Shown here piece after piece: positions 2,359-44,934 of a DNA stretch of 63,667 nt (within the stretch, counting starts at the first letter, position 1; each line of letters opens with the position of its first letter). The notes beneath the pieces are model-generated. The model did not search any database. It was not told the DNA's origin and saw nothing but the letters and a program-made list of their open reading frames with translations. Position numbers and translations under genes: made by a program. This DNA comes from Chlamydiae bacterium CG10_big_fil_rev_8_21_14_0_10_35_9 (GTDB lineage Bacteria > Chlamydiota > Chlamydiia > Chlamydiales > SM23-39). Location: assembly GCA_002773835.1 (NCBI GenBank), contig PFAC01000054.1, forward strand, positions 1 through 63,667, in the 5' to 3' direction.

Positions 2359-3440
2359 GCATATTTCTCCTTAGAATGGTATTTAGAGGCTAGTAAGGGA
2401 TCAAAAATCATCCCTGTTGCACATAAAGCAATATCGGCACCGTATTTAAAAAACTCATCAAAGTGCTCTGCTAGAGTAATTCCTCCAACACCCATGATGA
2501 TTATGTCCAGTTTTTCTTCCTTTTTTACTTGAAAGGCATTTTGTACGAATTCCAAAGCAAATTTTCTAATTTGTCCTCCACAAATACCACTTGTAGGCCT
2601 TTTAATCCCCAGAGCTGGTTGGCTATCTTTGGTAAAGACCGGTCTTCCTAAGGAATTTAGTCCGCAAATAGCATCAACATTTGCTTTAGCAGCTGCAATA
2701 AATACTTTCTTTAAGTGTTCATATGAAGGGAAATTTCCTACTTTGATAACTAAGGGAAGGGGATATATAGCTGTTTTAAGGGCTTTTGCAAATTGGTAAA
2801 CGCTTTCAGGGTCTAGATAAAGTTGACTATGCGCTGCAGCAACATTTGGGCAGGAAAAGTTTGCCTCAATAATAGATGCTCCTGCTTCTTTAGCTAAAAG
2901 AGCCGTATCGATAAAATCTTGCAAAAGGGAGATATCATTTGTTTGGCTGCCTACTACAGAAACAATTAATACCTGTCCGGGCGCCAGAGAAGCTTTTGCT
3001 TTTGCAATGTCATTTAATAAAAAGTCTCTTGATTGTGAGGGCATGCCAAAAGAGTTAGTAAGAGTTAAATCTTCTAGGGCTTCATGAGGCATATCTATTT
3101 GTACTGCATGATCTTCTTTAAGGTTGACATAGATCATATTAGGCAACGCGTGTCCTTGGTTTTTATAAGAACGAATGGTCTTATATGTTAGAATATCAAA
3201 GCCAAGTTGAGCTGCCAAATTTATCCAGTTAGAGTTTAATAAAGGACCTGCGGCAACTCCGATGGGACTCTTTATTGCGTGCCCAAGAAAATGAATATAA
3301 TTGTTTTTATCTACAGCTTTTCTTTCGGGAATAGCTTTAGTGTAAAATGGGCCTGAAGCGGCATTTTCTGCATAGGATTTTGTGATATCGTAAATAGGCG
3401 GGTTTTCTACATACCATTTTGGTGGCTTCTGTTTATTCAA
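2349..3440 (-). CDS. pyrD: Dihydroorotate dehydrogenase, class 1-like (Cys catalytic base)
   Basis: 'SPIGVAAGP', 'EANFSCPNV' (Cys base) and 'IIMGVGGI'. Overlaps pyrE and pyrC; no pyrK-like partner nearby. Confidence 0.85.
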   Translation of the reverse strand: MNKQKPPKWYVENPPIYDITKSYAENAASGPFYTKAIPERKAVDKNNYIHFLGHAIKSPIGVAAGPLLNSNWINLAAQLGFDILTYKTIRSYKNQGHALPNMIYVNLKEDHAVQIDMPHEALEDLTLTNSFGMPSQSRDFLLNDIAKAKASLAPGQVLIVSVVGSQTNDISLLQDFIDTALLAKEAGASIIEANFSCPNVAAAHSQLYLDPESVYQFAKALKTAIYPLPLVIKVGNFPSYEHLKKVFIAAAKANVDAICGLNSLGRPVFTKDSQPALGIKRPTSGICGGQIRKFALEFVQNAFQVKKEEKLDIIIMGVGGITLAEHFDEFFKYGADIALCATGMIFDPLLASKYHSKEKYACS

Positions 3441-4644
3441 TGTTGAATACCTTTCCTTTTAAAATAACTATTTTGGGCCAGCCTTTTAAAAGCTTGTTTT
3501 CAAAACATGACCAGCCAACTTTTGTTTTCATATGTCCAACTCTTTTTTCAAGGTTTAGATCTGCTAAAACAACATCATCAATGAGAGGAAGGTTGAAAAT
3601 GTCTTGGATTCTTAAATGAGTAAGAGAGACAATTTCCTGCAGTGTTAAACGGTTGTTGTTATACGCATCTAACAATAATGGAAGCATTGTTTCGATGCCG
3701 GGCATGCCCGAAGGGCAAGCCCCATAAGGCTTGTTTTTTTCTTCCAATGTATGTGGAGCGTGATCTGAACCTATACAATCTATGGTTCCGTCTTTTATGC
3801 CTTCCCAAAGGGCATCTCTATCAATCGATTTTCTAAGAGGTGGATTGATGACAGCTTTGGCGCCATATTTCTTGTAGTCATCAACTGTTAGAAATAAATG
3901 ATGAGGTGTTGCCTCTGCATAAATAGGCAAGTGCTTTTGTTTAGCTTTTCTAATGATTTCTAGTTCACCATGTGTACTTACATGAAGAATGTAGACTTTA
4001 GTAGGGTATTTTTCTACAAGTGATACAATTTTATGCACAGCCTTTTCAGCTGCTTTTTCTCCTCGTATAAGAGAGTGATCACTATAACTTAAAGGTCCCT
4101 TTATCTGACGTCTATTGCCTTGGATCATTTCTTCATCTTCAGCATGGACTGCTATAGGGAGATTATGTTTTTGAGCGATTTTAAATACTTCTTCTAAAGT
4201 TTTATTGTCTTGAATTAATAAACCTCCAGTAGAGGATCCCATGAATACCTTTATGCCAATAATATCATCTTTACAGCTTTCTATTTCATGTAAGTGGGCT
4301 TTATCTGCACCAAGGTAAAAAAAATGACGAAGAGGAATATTTACGCTCTTTAGCTGGTTAAATATTTTTTTCTTCTTATCTTGAAGAGCTGAAAAACTTA
4401 CACAAGGAGGAGTGTTATTGGGCATGTCAAATACAGTTGTGACCCCTCCATAAATAGCTGCCTTTGCTGCGGTTTCCCAGTTTTCTTTGTGTTCATGTCC
4501 AGGAACTCTAAAATGGACATGTGGGTCAATGAGAGCAGGTAGCAATGTAAGACCTGAGGCATCTATTATATGATTTTCTTTGCTTTCTATAAAATGGGTG
4601 ACTTTTTTCCCTTCAATATTTTTTGCATTTTTAATTTCTATCAC
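3433..4644 (-). CDS. pyrC: Dihydroorotase
   Basis: Amidohydrolase metal motif 'IDPHVHFRVPG', 'AVHAED' and 'GSDHAPH'. 403 aa. Confidence 0.9.
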   Translation of the reverse strand: MIEIKNAKNIEGKKVTHFIESKENHIIDASGLTLLPALIDPHVHFRVPGHEHKENWETAAKAAIYGGVTTVFDMPNNTPPCVSFSALQDKKKKIFNQLKSVNIPLRHFFYLGADKAHLHEIESCKDDIIGIKVFMGSSTGGLLIQDNKTLEEVFKIAQKHNLPIAVHAEDEEMIQGNRRQIKGPLSYSDHSLIRGEKAAEKAVHKIVSLVEKYPTKVYILHVSTHGELEIIRKAKQKHLPIYAEATPHHLFLTVDDYKKYGAKAVINPPLRKSIDRDALWEGIKDGTIDCIGSDHAPHTLEEKNKPYGACPSGMPGIETMLPLLLDAYNNNRLTLQEIVSLTHLRIQDIFNLPLIDDVVLADLNLEKRVGHMKTKVGWSCFENKLLKGWPKIVILKGKVFNIE

Positions 4645-39175: not shown

Positions 39176-39446
<271 letters not shown>

Positions 39447-39542
39447 TTTTGATGTCTCTTGTAGGGAAGTAAAAAGATCGGTCATATTCGTGAACGTGAA
39501 TTAAAAAAGAGAAGATTATCTTAACAGCGTTTTTTGAATTAT

Positions 39543-39569
39543 AAGAGGCCATTCATGGATTGGCCTCTT
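39543..39569. terminator. Perfect 9-bp hairpin downstream of the 85-aa gene
   Basis: aagaggcca-(9 nt)-tggcctctt. Flanks are A/T-rich but there is no clean U-tract. Confidence 0.35.
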
Positions 39570-39624
39570 CTGTACAAAAAAAATGGTTAAAAATCATTTA
39601 GAACTTAAATCATAATAAATATGT

Positions 39625-39882
39625 TTAACCAAGTAAACTATGAGCAATAAAAATAGTTAAATTTAAAGCTAGAAAAGTTGCTCCAAATTGGAATCCTATA
39701 ATTATATTTTTAGCTAGTAAGGAAGAGCTTGCCATTGCCTTTGCATGACAATAAATAGTAGCTAAAGAGCCTACAAAAACTGCTTGTGCAACATGTTTGA
39801 TCAAATTAGAAATAATATTGTCTTGTACTCTATATATATCAAACACGGTAGTGTGATTAGTTCTTAATATAGGGCTAGCCAT
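39625..39882 (-). CDS. Small membrane protein (two hydrophobic segments)
   Basis: 85 aa containing 'AQAVFVGSLATIY' and 'IIIGFQFGATFLALNLTIFIA'. Confidence 0.45.
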   Translation of the reverse strand: MASPILRTNHTTVFDIYRVQDNIISNLIKHVAQAVFVGSLATIYCHAKAMASSSLLAKNIIIGFQFGATFLALNLTIFIAHSLLG

Positions 39883-39892
39883 AATTTCTCCT

Positions 39893-40480
39893 TTAAGTTG
39901 TGTGTAAATTTATATCAATAGACTTCTCATATTCTCTAATAGTACGACTAAAATAATCCTTAGCTGTATGAAATTTCAATACATCATCATCAGAATCTCC
40001 ATTCTGTTGTTGCGATGCAATTCTTTGGGTTAAAGCATTAACTTTTCTATCTAATCGACTTAATCTACTGTGTTCAATTTGGTTTCCTATTTTGCCAGTC
40101 TTTAATATAAATTTACCCAAAGCACCTACCGATCCGCTTCCACCGCCTGTTACAGCAAATACAGTTAATGCTGAAGCAGAAGTGGCGAATAACGCAACCC
40201 CAATTATACCACCGATGATAGCTGATGTAGCTCCCCATTTAGTGACATCAGGTTTAGAAGTTTCTCTTCTTACTATTTTATGATCATTAAAAATATGAGT
40301 ACTTTCTGCAATGTCCATATCTTCTAAATAGCTATTAATTTCTTCAATTCCGCTGCATTTATAAGCGTACATTTTATCAGAGGGAATCCTTCCTATATTA
40401 GCATGATCAAAAATATGAAAGTTGGCATCATCATCAGATAATAATCTCATATGTTGTTGGTTAGAAACAATTGCTGTCAT
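39893..40480 (-). CDS. Membrane protein with a central Gly-rich bilobed hydrophobic region
   Basis: 'SAIIGGIIGVALFATSASALTVFAVTGGGSGSVGAL' flanked by hydrophilic N- and coiled C-regions. 10-nt gap to the downstream 85-aa gene. Confidence 0.5.
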   Translation of the reverse strand: MTAIVSNQQHMRLLSDDDANFHIFDHANIGRIPSDKMYAYKCSGIEEINSYLEDMDIAESTHIFNDHKIVRRETSKPDVTKWGATSAIIGGIIGVALFATSASALTVFAVTGGGSGSVGALGKFILKTGKIGNQIEHSRLSRLDRKVNALTQRIASQQQNGDSDDDVLKFHTAKDYFSRTIREYEKSIDINLHTT

Positions 40481-40691
40481 ATATTTCCTATTAAAATTTT
40501 TAAGTGTGTGAATGCTAAAGATTTTAGTTTGAAAATTGCAATTACAGAAATTATTTTAATTTTTTATCAAGTTTCCAAGTTAAAATAGCAATTTATTGTG
40601 ATTTCGAATTGGAGCTCACAGAGAGAGAATTCTTTGAATCTTGAACAAGCTGTCGTGATTTCAACGCGTGTGTATTATGGGGTGCATATGA

Positions 40692-40958
40692 ATGAATGGT
40701 AGATATCAGAAAATTTTAGACATCTTGAGGTATATCATGAAATGCATTGGAAGCATAAAAAGCAAATGGCGTCGTAATAGGCCTCTTTGTGGAGCTAAGT
40801 GTCGGGATGGGCATACATGTAAGGCAAAGGCTGTAGTAAATCCTAATACAGATCAACCAGTCAATGGACGTTGTAGGATATACGGAGGTTTAAGTACAGG
40901 AGCTAAAACTAAGATGGGAAGGGAAAAATGTAAGCAAGCTGCAAAAAAAGGATGCTAA
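40692..40958 (+). CDS. HGGxSTG-domain-like small Cys-rich protein
   Basis: 'CGAKCRDGHTCKAKAV...GRCRIYGGLSTGAKTKMG' resembles the 'C..C....C....RCR.HGG.STGP.T' motif of phage/plasmid small proteins, with His replaced by Tyr. Confidence 0.5.
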   Translation: MNGRYQKILDILRYIMKCIGSIKSKWRRNRPLCGAKCRDGHTCKAKAVVNPNTDQPVNGRCRIYGGLSTGAKTKMGREKCKQAAKKGC

Positions 40959-41197
40959 AATATTGGCAACAAAAGAAGAAAGGTTAATATCAGATGTATG
41001 ATTTGCCGTCAAAAAAACTTCTCATCAATTAATTGATGATCTTACTTTTTTTAGTTTGCCTTATGATTACAAAAAGTCTTTATTTTGTTCTCTTATAGGA
41101 TTTAAGTTGAAATTTTTTTCTTGAATTGACGGTATATTTAAAAATTTTGAATAGTATCGTCACTTAAATTTTTTTTAATAATAACAATGAGGTAAAT

Positions 41198-41896
41198 ATG
41201 GCAGCAGCAAGTCCCGTTTATCCCTATACTATTAGGGGAGAGTCAGCACGTGAACACCCTGATCGGTTTACTCAAATATATCAGCTAGAAGTTCATTCTG
41301 GCACAGGAGAAACAATTGAGGTCGCTATTGACCCAGCTGTATATCGAGACGATTGGGATCAGCCGTACGAAGAAGATTTAAATCATTATCTTCATTGCAA
41401 TGACCGGTTTTATAACGACAGAATTATTATGAGAGATGCTGTCTTTTTAAATGATAGAAGGTATGAGGATCCTAATTTTAGAGCTCATCAAGTGGAAAGA
41501 TATTTTACTGATAAAATGGAGCCCAGGTCGCATGAACTTGCTTGGATACATGCTTTATGTCCAGAAGAAGTAAGGTCATATGCAGAAGAACATAATTATA
41601 GTCAATATACGGAACAATTCCAGAATTTTAGAACTGCTTTAATGGATCGTTATATACAAAAAAAACAAAAAGAAAGACTTGATGCAATGAATCCTCTTGA
41701 TAGAACAGTAATGAAGGCTATATATGCACTTACTGATTTCAATGAAAAAATCATAGATTTTGTAGGAGATAAAAATGACCCAGAAGCTCAAGGGAAAAGA
41801 AAAATTGCAAGAAGCTGCATTAATCTGACTTATACAGCTGGATCTTTGTTTTTTTTTCGGTATTTACTGGGTTCAGCTTACTCAAAACCGCGTTAA
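41198..41896 (+). CDS. Hypothetical protein
   Basis: 232-aa ORF, acidic and aromatic-rich, with a C-terminal hydrophobic tail 'LTYTAGSLFFFRYLLGSAY'. No recognised domain. Confidence 0.45.
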   Translation: MAAASPVYPYTIRGESAREHPDRFTQIYQLEVHSGTGETIEVAIDPAVYRDDWDQPYEEDLNHYLHCNDRFYNDRIIMRDAVFLNDRRYEDPNFRAHQVERYFTDKMEPRSHELAWIHALCPEEVRSYAEEHNYSQYTEQFQNFRTALMDRYIQKKQKERLDAMNPLDRTVMKAIYALTDFNEKIIDFVGDKNDPEAQGKRKIARSCINLTYTAGSLFFFRYLLGSAYSKPR

Positions 41897-42066
41897 TATT
41901 TTTAGGAACTTCTGTTTTATTAGGATATTGGCACGATTTAGTAAATGCAAGTAAGTCATAGTAAATGTTGATTCATATGATTAGAGACTATTAAGCTGAG
42001 ATGGAAGGCAGCTTTTTAGAAAGCATAAGAGCTACATAAAAATTTGAAGATGATTTTCAGATTAAA

Positions 42067-42411
42067 ATGAATAATAAAGTCAATGAACCTAAAAAAAAGA
42101 TAACTCATCATAGAGCTTTAGCATATCTTTTGCAGAATCGAGTTATTTCTTCTTATGGAAAACTGATAGGTAAAGAATATGAGAATCTTGATTCCATAGA
42201 TGGTAAGTCAGCTTGGTGTGATTTTGCTGCACAAGACGAATGGGGTGAAGTTGTTTTAGCTTATCAAGAAAATTTACCTGTGCAGTTTTTATGGAAAAAT
42301 TTGTTTTATATAAGTCTTTCTGAGATGGAAGAAATGTATAATGTAAAATTGATGAAAAAACATTACCATCATCTTCATCTGAAGATTGTATGTCACCTAC
42401 AATTAAATTAA
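42067..42411 (+). CDS. Hypothetical protein
   Basis: ORF only; overlaps the next ORF by 22 nt. Confidence 0.35.
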   Translation: MNNKVNEPKKKITHHRALAYLLQNRVISSYGKLIGKEYENLDSIDGKSAWCDFAAQDEWGEVVLAYQENLPVQFLWKNLFYISLSEMEEMYNVKLMKKHYHHLHLKIVCHLQLN

Positions 42412-42722
42412 ATACTCAAAATGCAGTTCTGGAAAGCTTAGAAAAAAAACTTAGTAAAAAATATCCCTTTCTTAAAAAAGGATATAAAGAAAAAGGAACG
42501 CTGATAATAGGGATTATAGATCCACTCTTTGGAGGATTTATTAATGATATTGAGATAAAATTTAAAAGTTTTGATTTAAATTCTTTAGAAGAAGAAGCAA
42601 TAAGACTTTCTAAGAAAAGTTGTTTTGATAAAGTCTTGATTGTAGATGGATTGAGGGAGTTTTATTTAAACCCTCAGCAAGATGCTTATCAATTACTTCC
42701 GTTAAAAAATAATAATTATTAA
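42390..42722 (+). CDS. Hypothetical protein
   Basis: ORF only. Confidence 0.35.
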   Translation: MSPTIKLNTQNAVLESLEKKLSKKYPFLKKGYKEKGTLIIGIIDPLFGGFINDIEIKFKSFDLNSLEEEAIRLSKKSCFDKVLIVDGLREFYLNPQQDAYQLLPLKNNNY

Positions 42723-42751
42723 GGAGGTTCCTGAATCAAGTAAAAAGATTT

Positions 42752-43237
42752 CTATCTTTTGTAATTTTGTTTATATTCCTCAGCTAAAAGAACCAAGTCC
42801 ATTTTATCCTGACGATTTGATTTCAAAATTGGATATGTACTATATATAAGTTTTAAAAATTCTGTGTAGTTCATGTGTTTTGTTACAGATAATACATAAT
42901 CAACGATTTTACGATCTTTTTCGGAGAGAAGTTGATTTGCTTTATTTATATCTATCGGCTCTTTTAAAGAGATTTTTTCAGCAGTATTGCCGTAGTTGTT
43001 GATATATTTTTGAATAACAAAATATGAAGATTTATCTAGTTCGTTAATGATTTCTTTTACGTAAGGTCCATAATGATTAAATATCCACTTAATGTCGGTT
43101 ATTTGTTGTTTGTTATTAATTGCCGACTTCCAATCAACAAGGTAGATCAATTTTACTAATCTAGCTTTTGATAAAAGCGTTTTAAGATTGGTAGAACAAT
43201 AGCAAATATAAAGAGATAGATTTATTAATGGTGTCAT
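42752..43237 (-). CDS. Panacea (DUF4065, SocA/GepA-like) domain protein, putative antitoxin
   Basis: 'LSKARLVKLIYLVDWKSAINNKQQITDIKWIFNHYGPYVKEI' fits the Panacea core pattern (KL.KLLY..D......G..IT......W..GPV). Its start codon directly abuts the upstream stop (…ATG TAA ATG…). Confidence 0.65.
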   Translation of the reverse strand: MTPLINLSLYICYCSTNLKTLLSKARLVKLIYLVDWKSAINNKQQITDIKWIFNHYGPYVKEIINELDKSSYFVIQKYINNYGNTAEKISLKEPIDINKANQLLSEKDRKIVDYVLSVTKHMNYTEFLKLIYSTYPILKSNRQDKMDLVLLAEEYKQNYKR

Positions 43238-44074
43238 TTACATACCTAATTTAGTAGTATCTTCAAAAGAAGGGCCTATGTATTCTCTATACATGTCAAG
43301 GTCTTCCCTAAGGTTGATGCCAAGATCATCATTTAAAACTTTTGAGATCTTCCTTTCTTTTAATTGGGTTGGGCTAAGACTTTCAAATACAATAATCATA
43401 TGTTTTTGATGTCCACGTCGAATGGGTAGGGCAAAAATATTTCGGCTTTTCATAGTTAAGTTCGTAACTGAAGCTTTTGTTTTCATTCTTCCCACTTTGG
43501 AAGACATTTGAGCCTCAATCCAACCTTTTTCATCATTATTGGGATCAGGTAAATTTTCTATATAACATTTGTTTTTATGATAAGCCGCTCCAATTACTCC
43601 TTCATTATCAGGATAAAAAGCTCGACCTTTCTTTTTAAATTCTGGATCATCAGAGTGTCTATACAGTAAGATAAATTTATCCTTGGAATGGCAGTAAAGA
43701 GATACTCGCACTAATGGATCGTGAAGAAACTCTAGCCTTTTTAATATAGGTTCAAGTGAATGAGTTATCAAATTTTCGTAGAACTTTAGGGGCTGGTCTT
43801 GATCATCTGCTATTTCAAATAAATTGTTGATGTTGTTTATTAAGGTTTTATTTCGGGTTTTGTCTCGTTTACCTTGAGAAATAGTTCTTGATAATGACTT
43901 TTTATTTTTACAACTAAATATTATACAAATAATAAGTAAAATAACTCCAATTATATTTGCATTTTTAAGTGGGGTAAATAAGAGACTTCCGCTTATGATT
44001 GCTAAGGCTTCAACAAATCCTTCTCCCCATACCAGCTTATTTCTAAGAATACTTTTCAGAATTCGTTCTAACAT
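43238..44074 (-). CDS. 2-TM membrane protein with a C-terminal GAF-like domain, putative toxin/effector partner
   Basis: TM segments 'FVEALAIISGSLLF' and 'IIGVILLIICIIF'. GAF-like core 'VRVSLYCH...DNEGVIGAAYHKNKCYIENLPDP...SRNIFALPIRRGHQKHMIIVFES'. Confidence 0.5.
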   Translation of the reverse strand: MLERILKSILRNKLVWGEGFVEALAIISGSLLFTPLKNANIIGVILLIICIIFSCKNKKSLSRTISQGKRDKTRNKTLINNINNLFEIADDQDQPLKFYENLITHSLEPILKRLEFLHDPLVRVSLYCHSKDKFILLYRHSDDPEFKKKGRAFYPDNEGVIGAAYHKNKCYIENLPDPNNDEKGWIEAQMSSKVGRMKTKASVTNLTMKSRNIFALPIRRGHQKHMIIVFESLSPTQLKERKISKVLNDDLGINLREDLDMYREYIGPSFEDTTKLGM

Positions 44075-44294
44075 TTTTAAAATTAAAAATTAAATTTAAA
44101 GGAGCTTAGCATTAGTCGGAAATTAACTCTATCTTTATACCGGAATATTGCCGGAATGGATAATTACCAAAAGTTAATCTTGATCAATTTAAGTGACCAA
44201 TATTTCCTAGAAAAAATCTACTTTCCTCTATACACTTTATCAAGCAAAGGTGATTAAAGGTCACTTTGAGTAATTGTCAGTAAGGCTTTTTCAA

Positions 44295-44531
44295 GACTGA
44301 AAATCCTTGTGTCGCCAGTTCGATTCTGGCTCTGGCCACCACGTCACTTGCCGAAAGAATGCCGGAATATTACCGGAGCACAATTTCCTTAAATCATCCA
44401 AGCAGGGTTGCAACATATATTGTTGTTATCCGTTTTGGAGTGTCAATTTCGTTAAAATTACGGCATTTTTTAAACACTCTTTTTAACTAACTTAAAATCA
44501 AGAGCAAAGATGAATTTGTCTAAGGGTTATT
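44295..44531 (+). repeat. Direct repeat copy B (pseudo-tRNA-Phe 3' half 44295-44341 plus flank)
   Basis: Offset of 5090 bp from copy A. No tRNA 5' half lies upstream. Runs directly into the start of the 44535 gene. Confidence 0.9.
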
Positions 44532-44534
44532 TAT

Positions 44535-44885
44535 ATGAAAAAAACTGAAAATTTGTTCTCTTATGGAACATTGAGGTATGAAAAGGTTCAACTTGCTACA
44601 TTTGGTCGAAAATTAAAAGGAAAAGAAGACAGTCTTCCAGGTTATTACCTAGAAAAGCTTGAAATTACAGATCCTGACGTGATTGTAAAAAGTGGAGAGA
44701 ATATTCACTCGATTATTCGATTTTCAGGAAATCCTGAAGATCGAATTCCTGGCATAGTATTCAAAGTTTCTTTGGAAGAACTAGATCAAGCTGATAAATA
44801 TGAAGTAGCGGATTATAAAAGAATTCTAGTTCAATTATTGTCAGGCTTGTTTGCTTGGGTTTATGTCAGTGCCAAAAATCCTTAA
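44535..44885 (+). CDS. Gamma-glutamylcyclotransferase/AIG2-like family protein
   Basis: N-terminal 'LFSYGTLR' motif, about 115 aa, later 'YEVADYKRILV'. Confidence 0.55.
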   Translation: MKKTENLFSYGTLRYEKVQLATFGRKLKGKEDSLPGYYLEKLEITDPDVIVKSGENIHSIIRFSGNPEDRIPGIVFKVSLEELDQADKYEVADYKRILVQLLSGLFAWVYVSAKNP

Positions 44886-44906
44886 GGTCTATAAATCTAA
44901 ACATCA

Positions 44907-44934
44907 TGTCGCCAGTTCGATTCTGGCTTTGGCC
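44907..44934 (+). repeat. Degenerate third copy of the tRNA-Phe T-arm/acceptor 3' end
   Basis: tgtcgccagttcgattctggctTtggcc matches 39220-39247 at 27 of 28 positions. Confidence 0.8.

Follow-up and report, generated by a model that had tools for sequence, protein, structure and literature searches.

A probable toxin–antitoxin pair of the toxFtsL_D9:PanA type on a tRNA-Phe islet of an environmental Chlamydiota chromosome

Two adjacent genes on the minus strand of contig PFAC01000054.1 (Chlamydiae bacterium CG10_big_fil_rev_8_21_14_0_10_35_9, assembly GCA_002773835.1) encode a membrane-anchored protein of 278 amino acids (aa) with a GAF fold and a 161-aa Panacea protein (PanA). We analysed the whole contig of 63,667 nucleotides (nt), referred to below as the window. 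The pair appears to be a type II toxin–antitoxin (TA) module of the kind represented by toxFtsL_D9:PanA of Gelidibacter mesophilus, carried on a small, horizontally acquired tRNA-Phe islet of an environmental Chlamydiota chromosome; we put the probability of this reading at about 0.8. The features of the pair are listed here with the evidence for each in brackets (ORF, open reading frame; TM, transmembrane).

43238..44074, minus strand: toxin gene, 278 aa, toxFtsL_D9-like membrane-anchored GAF protein (ORF, homology)
42752..43237, minus strand: antitoxin gene, 161 aa, stand-alone Panacea protein, PanA (ORF, PF13274)
43235..43240, minus strand: TAA/ATG junction, the toxin stop at 43238-43240 abutting the antitoxin ATG at 43235-43237 (sequence)
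42842..43159, minus strand: Panacea domain including HYGPYV, codons 27-132 of PanA (Pfam envelope)
43970..44026, minus strand: TM1, codons 17-35 of the toxin, a weaker hydrophobic helix with a conserved Glu (Kyte-Doolittle, models)
43910..43957, minus strand: TM2, codons 40-55, a strong TM helix (Kyte-Doolittle)
43736..43909, minus strand: codons 56-113, a long basic helix running on from TM2 and a second helix (DSSP of models)
43277..43723, minus strand: GAF-fold domain, codons 118-266 (Foldseek against PDB, invariant columns)
44075..44294, minus strand: intergenic region upstream of the toxin gene, where the promoter of the two-gene unit presumably lies (one sigma-70-like match at 44243-44215)

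Both ORFs are genuine genes and not chance ORFs, since PanA scores above the Pfam gathering threshold and the toxin has homologues and a large family. Both are intact and of full family length, and every invariant residue is kept. On the minus strand the junction reads GGT ATG TAA ATG ACA, with neither spacer nor overlap; coordinates and sequence here agree with an earlier reading of this DNA made from the sequence alone (the sequence-only reading), which had described a 278-aa ORF ending in TAA and followed immediately by the ATG of a 161-aa ORF. The same reading had called the 161-aa protein Panacea-type, and it does match PF13274 (SocA_Panacea, DUF4065), with 54.4 bits against a gathering score of 25.7 over residues 27-132. 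This is the sole credible domain of the protein; its weaker matches are to DarG and to type I specificity subunits, in their Panacea-like portions. The GPV motif of Panacea domains has been shown to matter for neutralisation (PMC8832971); in the window PanA this signature is covered by HYGPYV (G56, P57), which is identical in the validated PanA of G. mesophilus. A search of the PDB by sequence gave no match for PanA.

The evidence that carries the assignment is the homology of both proteins to a pair tested in the laboratory. PanAT systems were defined by Kurata et al. 2022, where GAF is not mentioned (PMC8832971). Ernits et al. 2023 described toxFtsL_D9, the toxin of NetFlax node D9, as a 281-aa protein of the architecture 'GAF; FtsL; transmembrane' (WP_027127282.1), with the stand-alone PanA WP_027127283.1 as its antitoxin (PMC10440598). 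In BLASTP, 144 aa of the GAF core of the window toxin align with toxFtsL_D9 at 33% identity (E 5e-18), all family-invariant residues lining up, and a profile comparison of the window clade with the Bacteroidota toxFtsL clade (hhalign) yields a probability of 99.4% (E 1e-21). The two PanA proteins share 41% identity over 138 aa (E 1e-33), including KLIYL.DWK and HYGPYV. A profile built on the family's Bacteroidota clade recovered WP_027127282.1, whose accession was confirmed; a motif scan and Bacteroidota-clade patterns applied to genomes had both missed the G. mesophilus toxin.

The two pairs are alike in protein size (278 and 281 aa for the toxins, 161 and 165 aa for the PanAs), in toxin architecture (a GAF fold behind a long helix and a hydrophobic hairpin at the N-terminus), in the stand-alone Panacea antitoxin, and in gene order, the toxin gene coming first and the antitoxin gene abutting or overlapping it. 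They differ in the junction itself, which is TAA/ATG in the window and a 4-nt overlap in G. mesophilus (contig L110, toxin at 2380-3225 and 165-aa Panacea gene at 3222-3719), and in the N-terminal TM/helical third, which cannot be aligned by sequence between the clades. The hosts also differ, a flavobacterium on one side and a member of the FtsZ-less Chlamydiota on the other. A further difference is that the window clade, with its 8 representatives at E<=1e-30, is small, branches deeply and is known from metagenomes only. By homology, the window pair is a divergent member of the toxFtsL_D9:PanA family, a PanAT sub-type that is already known. The proposal of a PanAT-type two-gene module with a membrane-anchored GAF toxin and a Panacea antitoxin is supported by the validated pair, whereas the further claim of a new pair with a previously uncatalogued PanT-like effector falls to the same homology (PMC10440598).

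In E. coli, toxFtsL_D9 abolishes colony formation and is neutralised directly by its PanA. Liquid cultures arrest after about an hour and later collapse or lyse; cells become filamentous and YFP-FtsZ loses its localisation. DiSC3(5)/SYTOX assays show neither depolarisation nor permeabilisation of the membrane (Fig. S12), and rapid shut-off is absent in metabolic labelling (PMC10440598 for all of these). The membrane-acting, depolarising mechanism implied by the sequence-only reading is thus at odds with the tested homologue, which blocks division. On the model of that homologue (PMC10440598), the two window genes would be co-transcribed and translationally coupled, and PanA would bind the toxin directly in the cytoplasm and hold it inactive. 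Loss or displacement of PanA would free the membrane-anchored toxin, probably dimeric through its helical region, to interfere with divisome assembly, and the outcome would be delayed growth arrest, filamentation and lysis rather than depolarisation. The genomic context suggests that the module may serve addiction, stabilising the islet, or abortive defence against phages or other mobile elements.

The two N-terminal TM helices proposed from the sequence alone are both supported by hydropathy and structural models, but they are unequal. TM2 (residues 40-55) reaches a Kyte-Doolittle value of 3.33 over 15 residues, and the weaker TM1 (residues 17-35) reaches 1.86 over 15 residues; both are helical in both models, and the segment equivalent to TM1 is more hydrophobic in relatives, toxFtsL_D9 included. 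The N-terminus carries 4 K/R against 1 D/E, and the 25 residues after TM2 carry 9 K/R against 1 D/E. From the positive-inside rule, together with the need to meet a cytoplasmic PanA, we infer a topology in which the N-terminus is inside, residues 36-39 form a short loop on the outside, and both the helix and the GAF domain are cytoplasmic. The helical region (codons 56-113) corresponds in position to the 'FtsL-like' region of toxFtsL_D9. Neither the 278-aa protein nor toxFtsL_D9 matches Pfam FtsL/DivIC, and a weak DivIC match occurs in 1 of 60 family members.

Two AlphaFold models of the toxin, built from 5 sequences (pLDDT 74.6) and from 47 (pLDDT 88.5, pTM 0.76), agree in placing helices at residues 2-11, 13-32, 37-88 (very long) and 94-113, followed by an alpha/beta domain at 122-265. 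Foldseek against the PDB returned 79 matches with the former model and 118 with the latter at E<=1e-3. The top matches listed for both models are all of GAF fold (probability 1.00, TM-score up to 0.67 on the target) and comprise the cAMP/cGMP-binding GAFs of Lcd1, CyaB2, PDE2A and PDE6, fRMsr, the PtsP GAF and IclR ligand domains. Judged from these models, the GAF fold of the 278-aa protein is certain. Its structural neighbours include cNMP-binding GAFs, and equally fRMsr enzymes, PtsP and IclR domains; the invariant polar residues are compatible with a putative GAF ligand pocket, through which the effector would possibly be gated according to the sequence-only reading. The Pfam GAF models (PF01590 / PF13185) do not match the protein even at E<=10, and matches to GAF or GAF_2 are weak and confined to 3 of 60 family members. 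The GAF-like core of the sequence-only reading therefore holds at the level of the fold and fails at the level of Pfam sequence models, while the motifs that it quoted (NEGVIGAAY, SRNIF... and IIVFES) do lie on invariant or near-invariant columns (G159, I161, S210, R211, E231, S232). The 278-aa protein has no match in Pfam, NCBIfam, PADLOC or PHROG, scanning the libraries with 60 family members or with toxFtsL_D9 itself yielded no usable match, and toxin profiles found no match in the PDB by sequence.

The family to which the toxin belongs is large. A word-indexed protein search returned four close homologues only (43-57% identity, E 1e-56 to 1e-83), each with a second gene at stop+1. On the longest of their contigs (L001) this gene is annotated SocA_Panacea, and on the short contigs L002 and L003 a truncated partner was identified by a custom Panacea hidden Markov model (HMM). 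An exhaustive HMMER search of cluster representatives (50% clustering), with the alignment of close homologues as query, detected at least 1,262 representatives at E<=1e-3, 552 at E<=1e-10 and 8 at E<=1e-30, nearly all family members found being 250-300 aa long. On these sequence comparisons the window toxin belongs to a small, deep clade within a large family. In 60 diverse members, three residues (R123, G159 and E231) are invariant, and S125, Y127, F134, R139, R151, Y154, I161, P176, M208, S210, S232 and P268 are near-invariant.

Pairing with Panacea is widespread in this family. All seven metagenomic relatives examined (27-57% identity) have a downstream gene at stop+1 or overlapping, and in all seven it is a Panacea gene (five by precomputed Pfam SocA_Panacea annotation, two truncated ones by HMM). 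We also scanned one genome per species with a degenerate DNA pattern of the family motif. Among the 86 stretches retrieved were 71 true members, of which 7 were cut off by the sequence end, leaving 64 loci assessable for the downstream neighbour. A Panacea ORF lies directly downstream in 40 of the 64, mostly with a 4-nt overlap, and the gap is -4 to +2 nt in 29 of these 40. The sequence-only reading had proposed looking for the same pair in other genomes, and these loci and the metagenomic relatives supply it. Gene order is conserved across phyla: the toxin gene comes first, and the antitoxin gene abuts it or overlaps it. Carriers of the family belong to Proteobacteria, Bacteroidota, Firmicutes, Actinomycetota, Planctomycetota, Legionella and Saccharibacteria, together with one archaeal metagenome-assembled genome (MAG) of Methanothrix.

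Chlamydial carriers number 0 among the 71 motif-scan loci and 0 among 13 loci found with the Bacteroidota-clade profile, which come largely from the same genomes. Exact DNA and window-clade patterns had no match in 185,579 representative genomes, so the window's own clade is absent from that collection, and a metagenome scan with the window clade yielded distant relatives only (25-44% identity). By tblastn, the window toxin matched nothing in a plasmid collection or in 50,697 phage records; a central family member matched a single Vibrio plasmid. The neighbours of distant members (27-31% identity) are those usual in mobile and defence DNA and include elements with an integrase and a DUF927/DUF5906 primase, as well as HerA, RelB and an ISL3 transposase.

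Comparison with other known systems sets the pair apart from each of them. Other PanATs with membrane toxins (E. coli STEC O31, Helicobacter sp., Bartonella PanT_D11; Kurata et al. 2022, PMC8832971) likewise combine a Panacea antitoxin with a TM-containing toxin and are frequently carried by mobile elements; neutralisation by direct binding would, by analogy, be common to them and the window pair. Their toxins, however, are small peptides or coiled-coil proteins without GAF, non-homologous to the window toxin, and they bring all macromolecular synthesis to a halt, the membrane being depolarised or permeabilised. SocAB of Caulobacter crescentus, a type VI TA system, also has an antitoxin with a Panacea (DUF4065) domain, but SocA is a ClpXP adaptor promoting the degradation of SocB, and SocB is a sliding-clamp-binding replication inhibitor unrelated to the window toxin; the PanAs tested worked without ClpXP or Lon (PMC8832971). 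With CbtA/YeeV the window pair would share the outcome expected by homology, namely a division block with shape defects rather than a translation stop. CbtA differs in being a small soluble protein that binds FtsZ and MreB, is non-homologous to the window toxin, and has no TM segment, GAF fold or Panacea antitoxin. Phage class III (T4 T-type) holins and phage GAF membrane proteins resemble the toxin in having predicted N-terminal TM segments followed by an alpha/beta domain; they differ from it in that no sequence similarity was found (tblastn of the 50,697 phage records, PHROG) and in that the globular domain is probably on the opposite side of the membrane.

The pair lies within an islet bounded by a tRNA-Phe gene and a partial copy of it, the features of which are as follows.

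39176..39251, plus strand: tRNA-Phe (GAA), left islet anchor (ARAGORN; Rfam 69.9 bits)
39205..39445, plus strand: direct repeat, left copy, the 3' 47 nt of tRNA-Phe and downstream sequence (repeat search)
44295..44532, plus strand: direct repeat, right copy, bounding the 5.09-kb islet (repeat search)
44535-44885: GGACT-family gene
44907-44934: third tRNA-Phe 3' fragment, 28 nt

The repeat consists of the 47-nt 3' piece of the tRNA and roughly 190-290 nt of downstream sequence, its copies being 98% identical over the first ~190 nt and spaced 5088-5090 nt apart. The islet had been described as tRNA-flanked, which is correct for one side, where a complete tRNA-Phe stands; the other boundary is the repeat with its tRNA fragment and not a second tRNA gene, tRNA-Phe being the only tRNA gene of the window. 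The GC content of the islet is 31.3%, against 35.6% for the window. At the DNA level the flanks share 92-93% identity with JASFVE010000006 (L004), a MAG from the Chlamydiota. The two are syntenic as far as 39428, over rpsG/rpsL, a tail-specific protease (with 96% amino-acid identity) and tRNA-Phe, and again from 46952. Between these points JASFVE010000006 has ~2 kb of different genes and no islet, while the window has the 5.09-kb islet, the repeat, the GGACT-family gene, the third tRNA-Phe fragment and a SulP transporter. The tRNA-Phe region (39176-44934) is an insertion hot spot with nested remnants. No integrase or recombinase was found among the islet ORFs by Pfam, PHROG or PADLOC, and the six other ORFs of the islet have no family match in these libraries.

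The identical toxin occurs in at least five further assemblies, and the identical pair in several independent ones, one of which (L129) spans the right islet junction at 100% identity. A contig of 5,054 nt (L127), which coincides with the islet in extent, was considered as a circular excised form and rejected: it ends inside both repeat copies and has no terminal overlap, as expected of an assembly break. Classical Chlamydiaceae genomes have 0 predicted type II TA genes (Leplae et al. 2011). Together with the count of 0 chlamydial loci among 71 and 13, and the lack of the islet in the closest relative, this makes the earlier remark that the pair is unusual for Chlamydiae a reasonable one.

Several observations weigh against the interpretation of the pair as a functional toxFtsL_D9:PanA-type module. 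Identity to the validated toxin is just 33% and limited to the GAF core, and the 'FtsL-like' part of the window toxin is alike in architecture only, because the N-terminal TM/helical parts do not align. With the helix and the GAF domain both cytoplasmic, mimicry of the periplasmic coiled coil of FtsL is hard to picture. The FtsZ phenotype of the homologue transfers poorly to Chlamydiales, which have no FtsZ (PMC3988822, PMC11975371); either the delocalisation of FtsZ in E. coli would be indirect, or the target would be a component that chlamydiae keep. Several toxins predicted in the PanAT studies were non-toxic in E. coli (PMC10440598, PMC8832971). Furthermore, 24 of the 64 assessable loci have no Panacea neighbour, mainly in an Actinomycetota and a Flavobacterium branch, and the GAF protein is therefore not always controlled by PanA. 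Promoter matches upstream of the toxin gene are no more numerous than in shuffled sequence and so within chance; a scan of the same region (44075..44294) found no terminator-like site.

Three other explanations were considered. That the toxin represents a new, uncatalogued PanT family unrelated to the described ones would agree with the failure of Pfam, NCBIfam, PADLOC and PHROG models to match it, with the mere four close homologues of the first search, and with the empty result of the clade's own peptide patterns in representative genomes; it is hardly credible, being ruled out by the direct homology of the toxin to toxFtsL_D9 and of the antitoxin to its PanA, and the 'GAF; FtsL; transmembrane' plus Panacea architecture is already listed and tested (PMC10440598). 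The pair might instead be a passenger that has ceased to act as a TA system in this host: the GAF protein could be a non-toxic sensor of small molecules regulated by PanA, or the module could be an inert remnant on a decaying islet. The islet without integrase and with ORFs of no recognisable family, a host phylum that lacks the very protein affected in the E. coli phenotype, conserved polar residues that fit putative ligand binding in the GAF fold, and membership in a wider family that partly lacks PanA all point in this direction. We nevertheless regard it as improbable: both ORFs are intact with all invariant residues retained, the tight coupling of the genes is kept, several independent assemblies contain the identical pair, and the nearest tested relative is strongly toxic and neutralised by its own PanA.

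It is improbable, too, that the toxin serves abortive infection as a membrane-lesion effector, holin-like or otherwise, which would accumulate in the membrane and, once released from PanA, kill the cell by lesions; this is the membrane action envisaged in the sequence-only reading. The N-terminal TM hairpin, the membrane disruption caused by three earlier validated PanT toxins (PMC8832971), the delayed culture collapse seen with the homologue, and relatives adjoining Abi_alpha and restriction-modification genes are all in keeping with such an effector, and Foldseek against BFVD retrieves phage proteins with TM and GAF-like parts (E 4e-6 to 2e-3), among them a 'class III holin' of Proteus phage Stubb (E 7.5e-5) and a 'T holin' of Serratia phage PS2 (E 2e-3). 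Yet the validated toxFtsL_D9 neither depolarises nor permeabilises the membrane and causes no rapid metabolic shut-off, no PADLOC or PHROG family matches the toxin, and phage holins resemble it in fold alone (TM-scores 0.3-0.5, 8-16% identity). The globular domain of T4-type holins is moreover periplasmic, whereas charges and a cytoplasmic PanA place that of the window toxin in the cytoplasm. Another BFVD match of TM-plus-GAF-like shape is a membrane protein of Gordonia phage Finkle. On the structural models, a structural link between T-type holins and the toxFtsL-like family is possible.

The TM-GAF and Panacea pair is thus not a new system but of the toxFtsL_D9:PanA type validated in 2023. 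The family is far larger than its single tested example. Genome-annotation and defence-finder pipelines miss the toxin, since no Pfam, NCBIfam, PADLOC or PHROG model recognises it. A chlamydial host, with no FtsZ and with classical members lacking type II TA systems, raises the question of the real target of the toxin. As Chlamydiota divide without FtsZ, a functional toxFtsL-type toxin there would need a non-FtsZ target. One might speculate, although we hold it unlikely, that the family acts as ligand-dependent inhibitors of a conserved, FtsZ-independent step of division, the chlamydial member acting on a target other than FtsZ. Were this true, the FtsQ/L/B-FtsK-MreB machinery or lipid-linked peptidoglycan precursors would be candidate targets, the invariant Arg/Ser/Tyr/Glu residues could form an anionic-ligand pocket gating or mediating toxin action, and the window member would be a natural probe of chlamydial division.

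Some branches of the family show other gene arrangements. The Panacea neighbour is absent at Actinomycetota loci L014, L023, L026, L050, L062, L065, L076 and L089, which have a 105-128-aa ORF without Pfam match directly upstream, often with a 4-nt overlap; this ORF may be an alternative, undescribed antitoxin. The Panacea-less Flavobacterium / Flavobacteriaceae branch comprises L035, L037, L064 and L070; two of these loci (L037 and L064) encode, ahead of the GAF gene, a protein of 397 aa that has a MUG113 (T5orf172-like) domain. In Legionella waltersii (L073) and Arthrobacter sp. (L012) the toxFtsL-like gene and the PanA gene are each split into several short ORFs, and these copies appear to be decaying. 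The contig L008 / L009 (ENA contig ctg130669_1x_c) is a concatemer of a ~9.6-kb Rep_1 plasmid, small and rich in defence genes, whose cargo includes an MmeI-type restriction-modification enzyme, Abi_alpha, a transposase and a toxFtsL-like/PanA pair.

Within the islet itself, the region upstream of the toxin gene contains a short repeat, ATTCCGG-N4-ATTCCGG (44137-44168), at a distance of 63-94 nt from the start codon. A similar sequence lies just beyond the 3' end of tRNA-Phe (39269-39300) and recurs in the copy of that sequence at 44359-44390. The short repeat may be a further att-like remnant, or else an operator. Four of the islet ORFs, at 39625-41896, encode proteins of 85, 195, 88 and 232 aa, the 195-aa protein having a Gly/Ala-rich hydrophobic stretch and the 88-aa protein being rich in Cys, Lys and Arg. 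Two further ORFs of 114 and 110 aa on the plus strand (42067-42722) overlap by 22 nt, converge on the PanA gene and end 30 nt from its stop; they could be one frameshifted gene or another small two-gene module.

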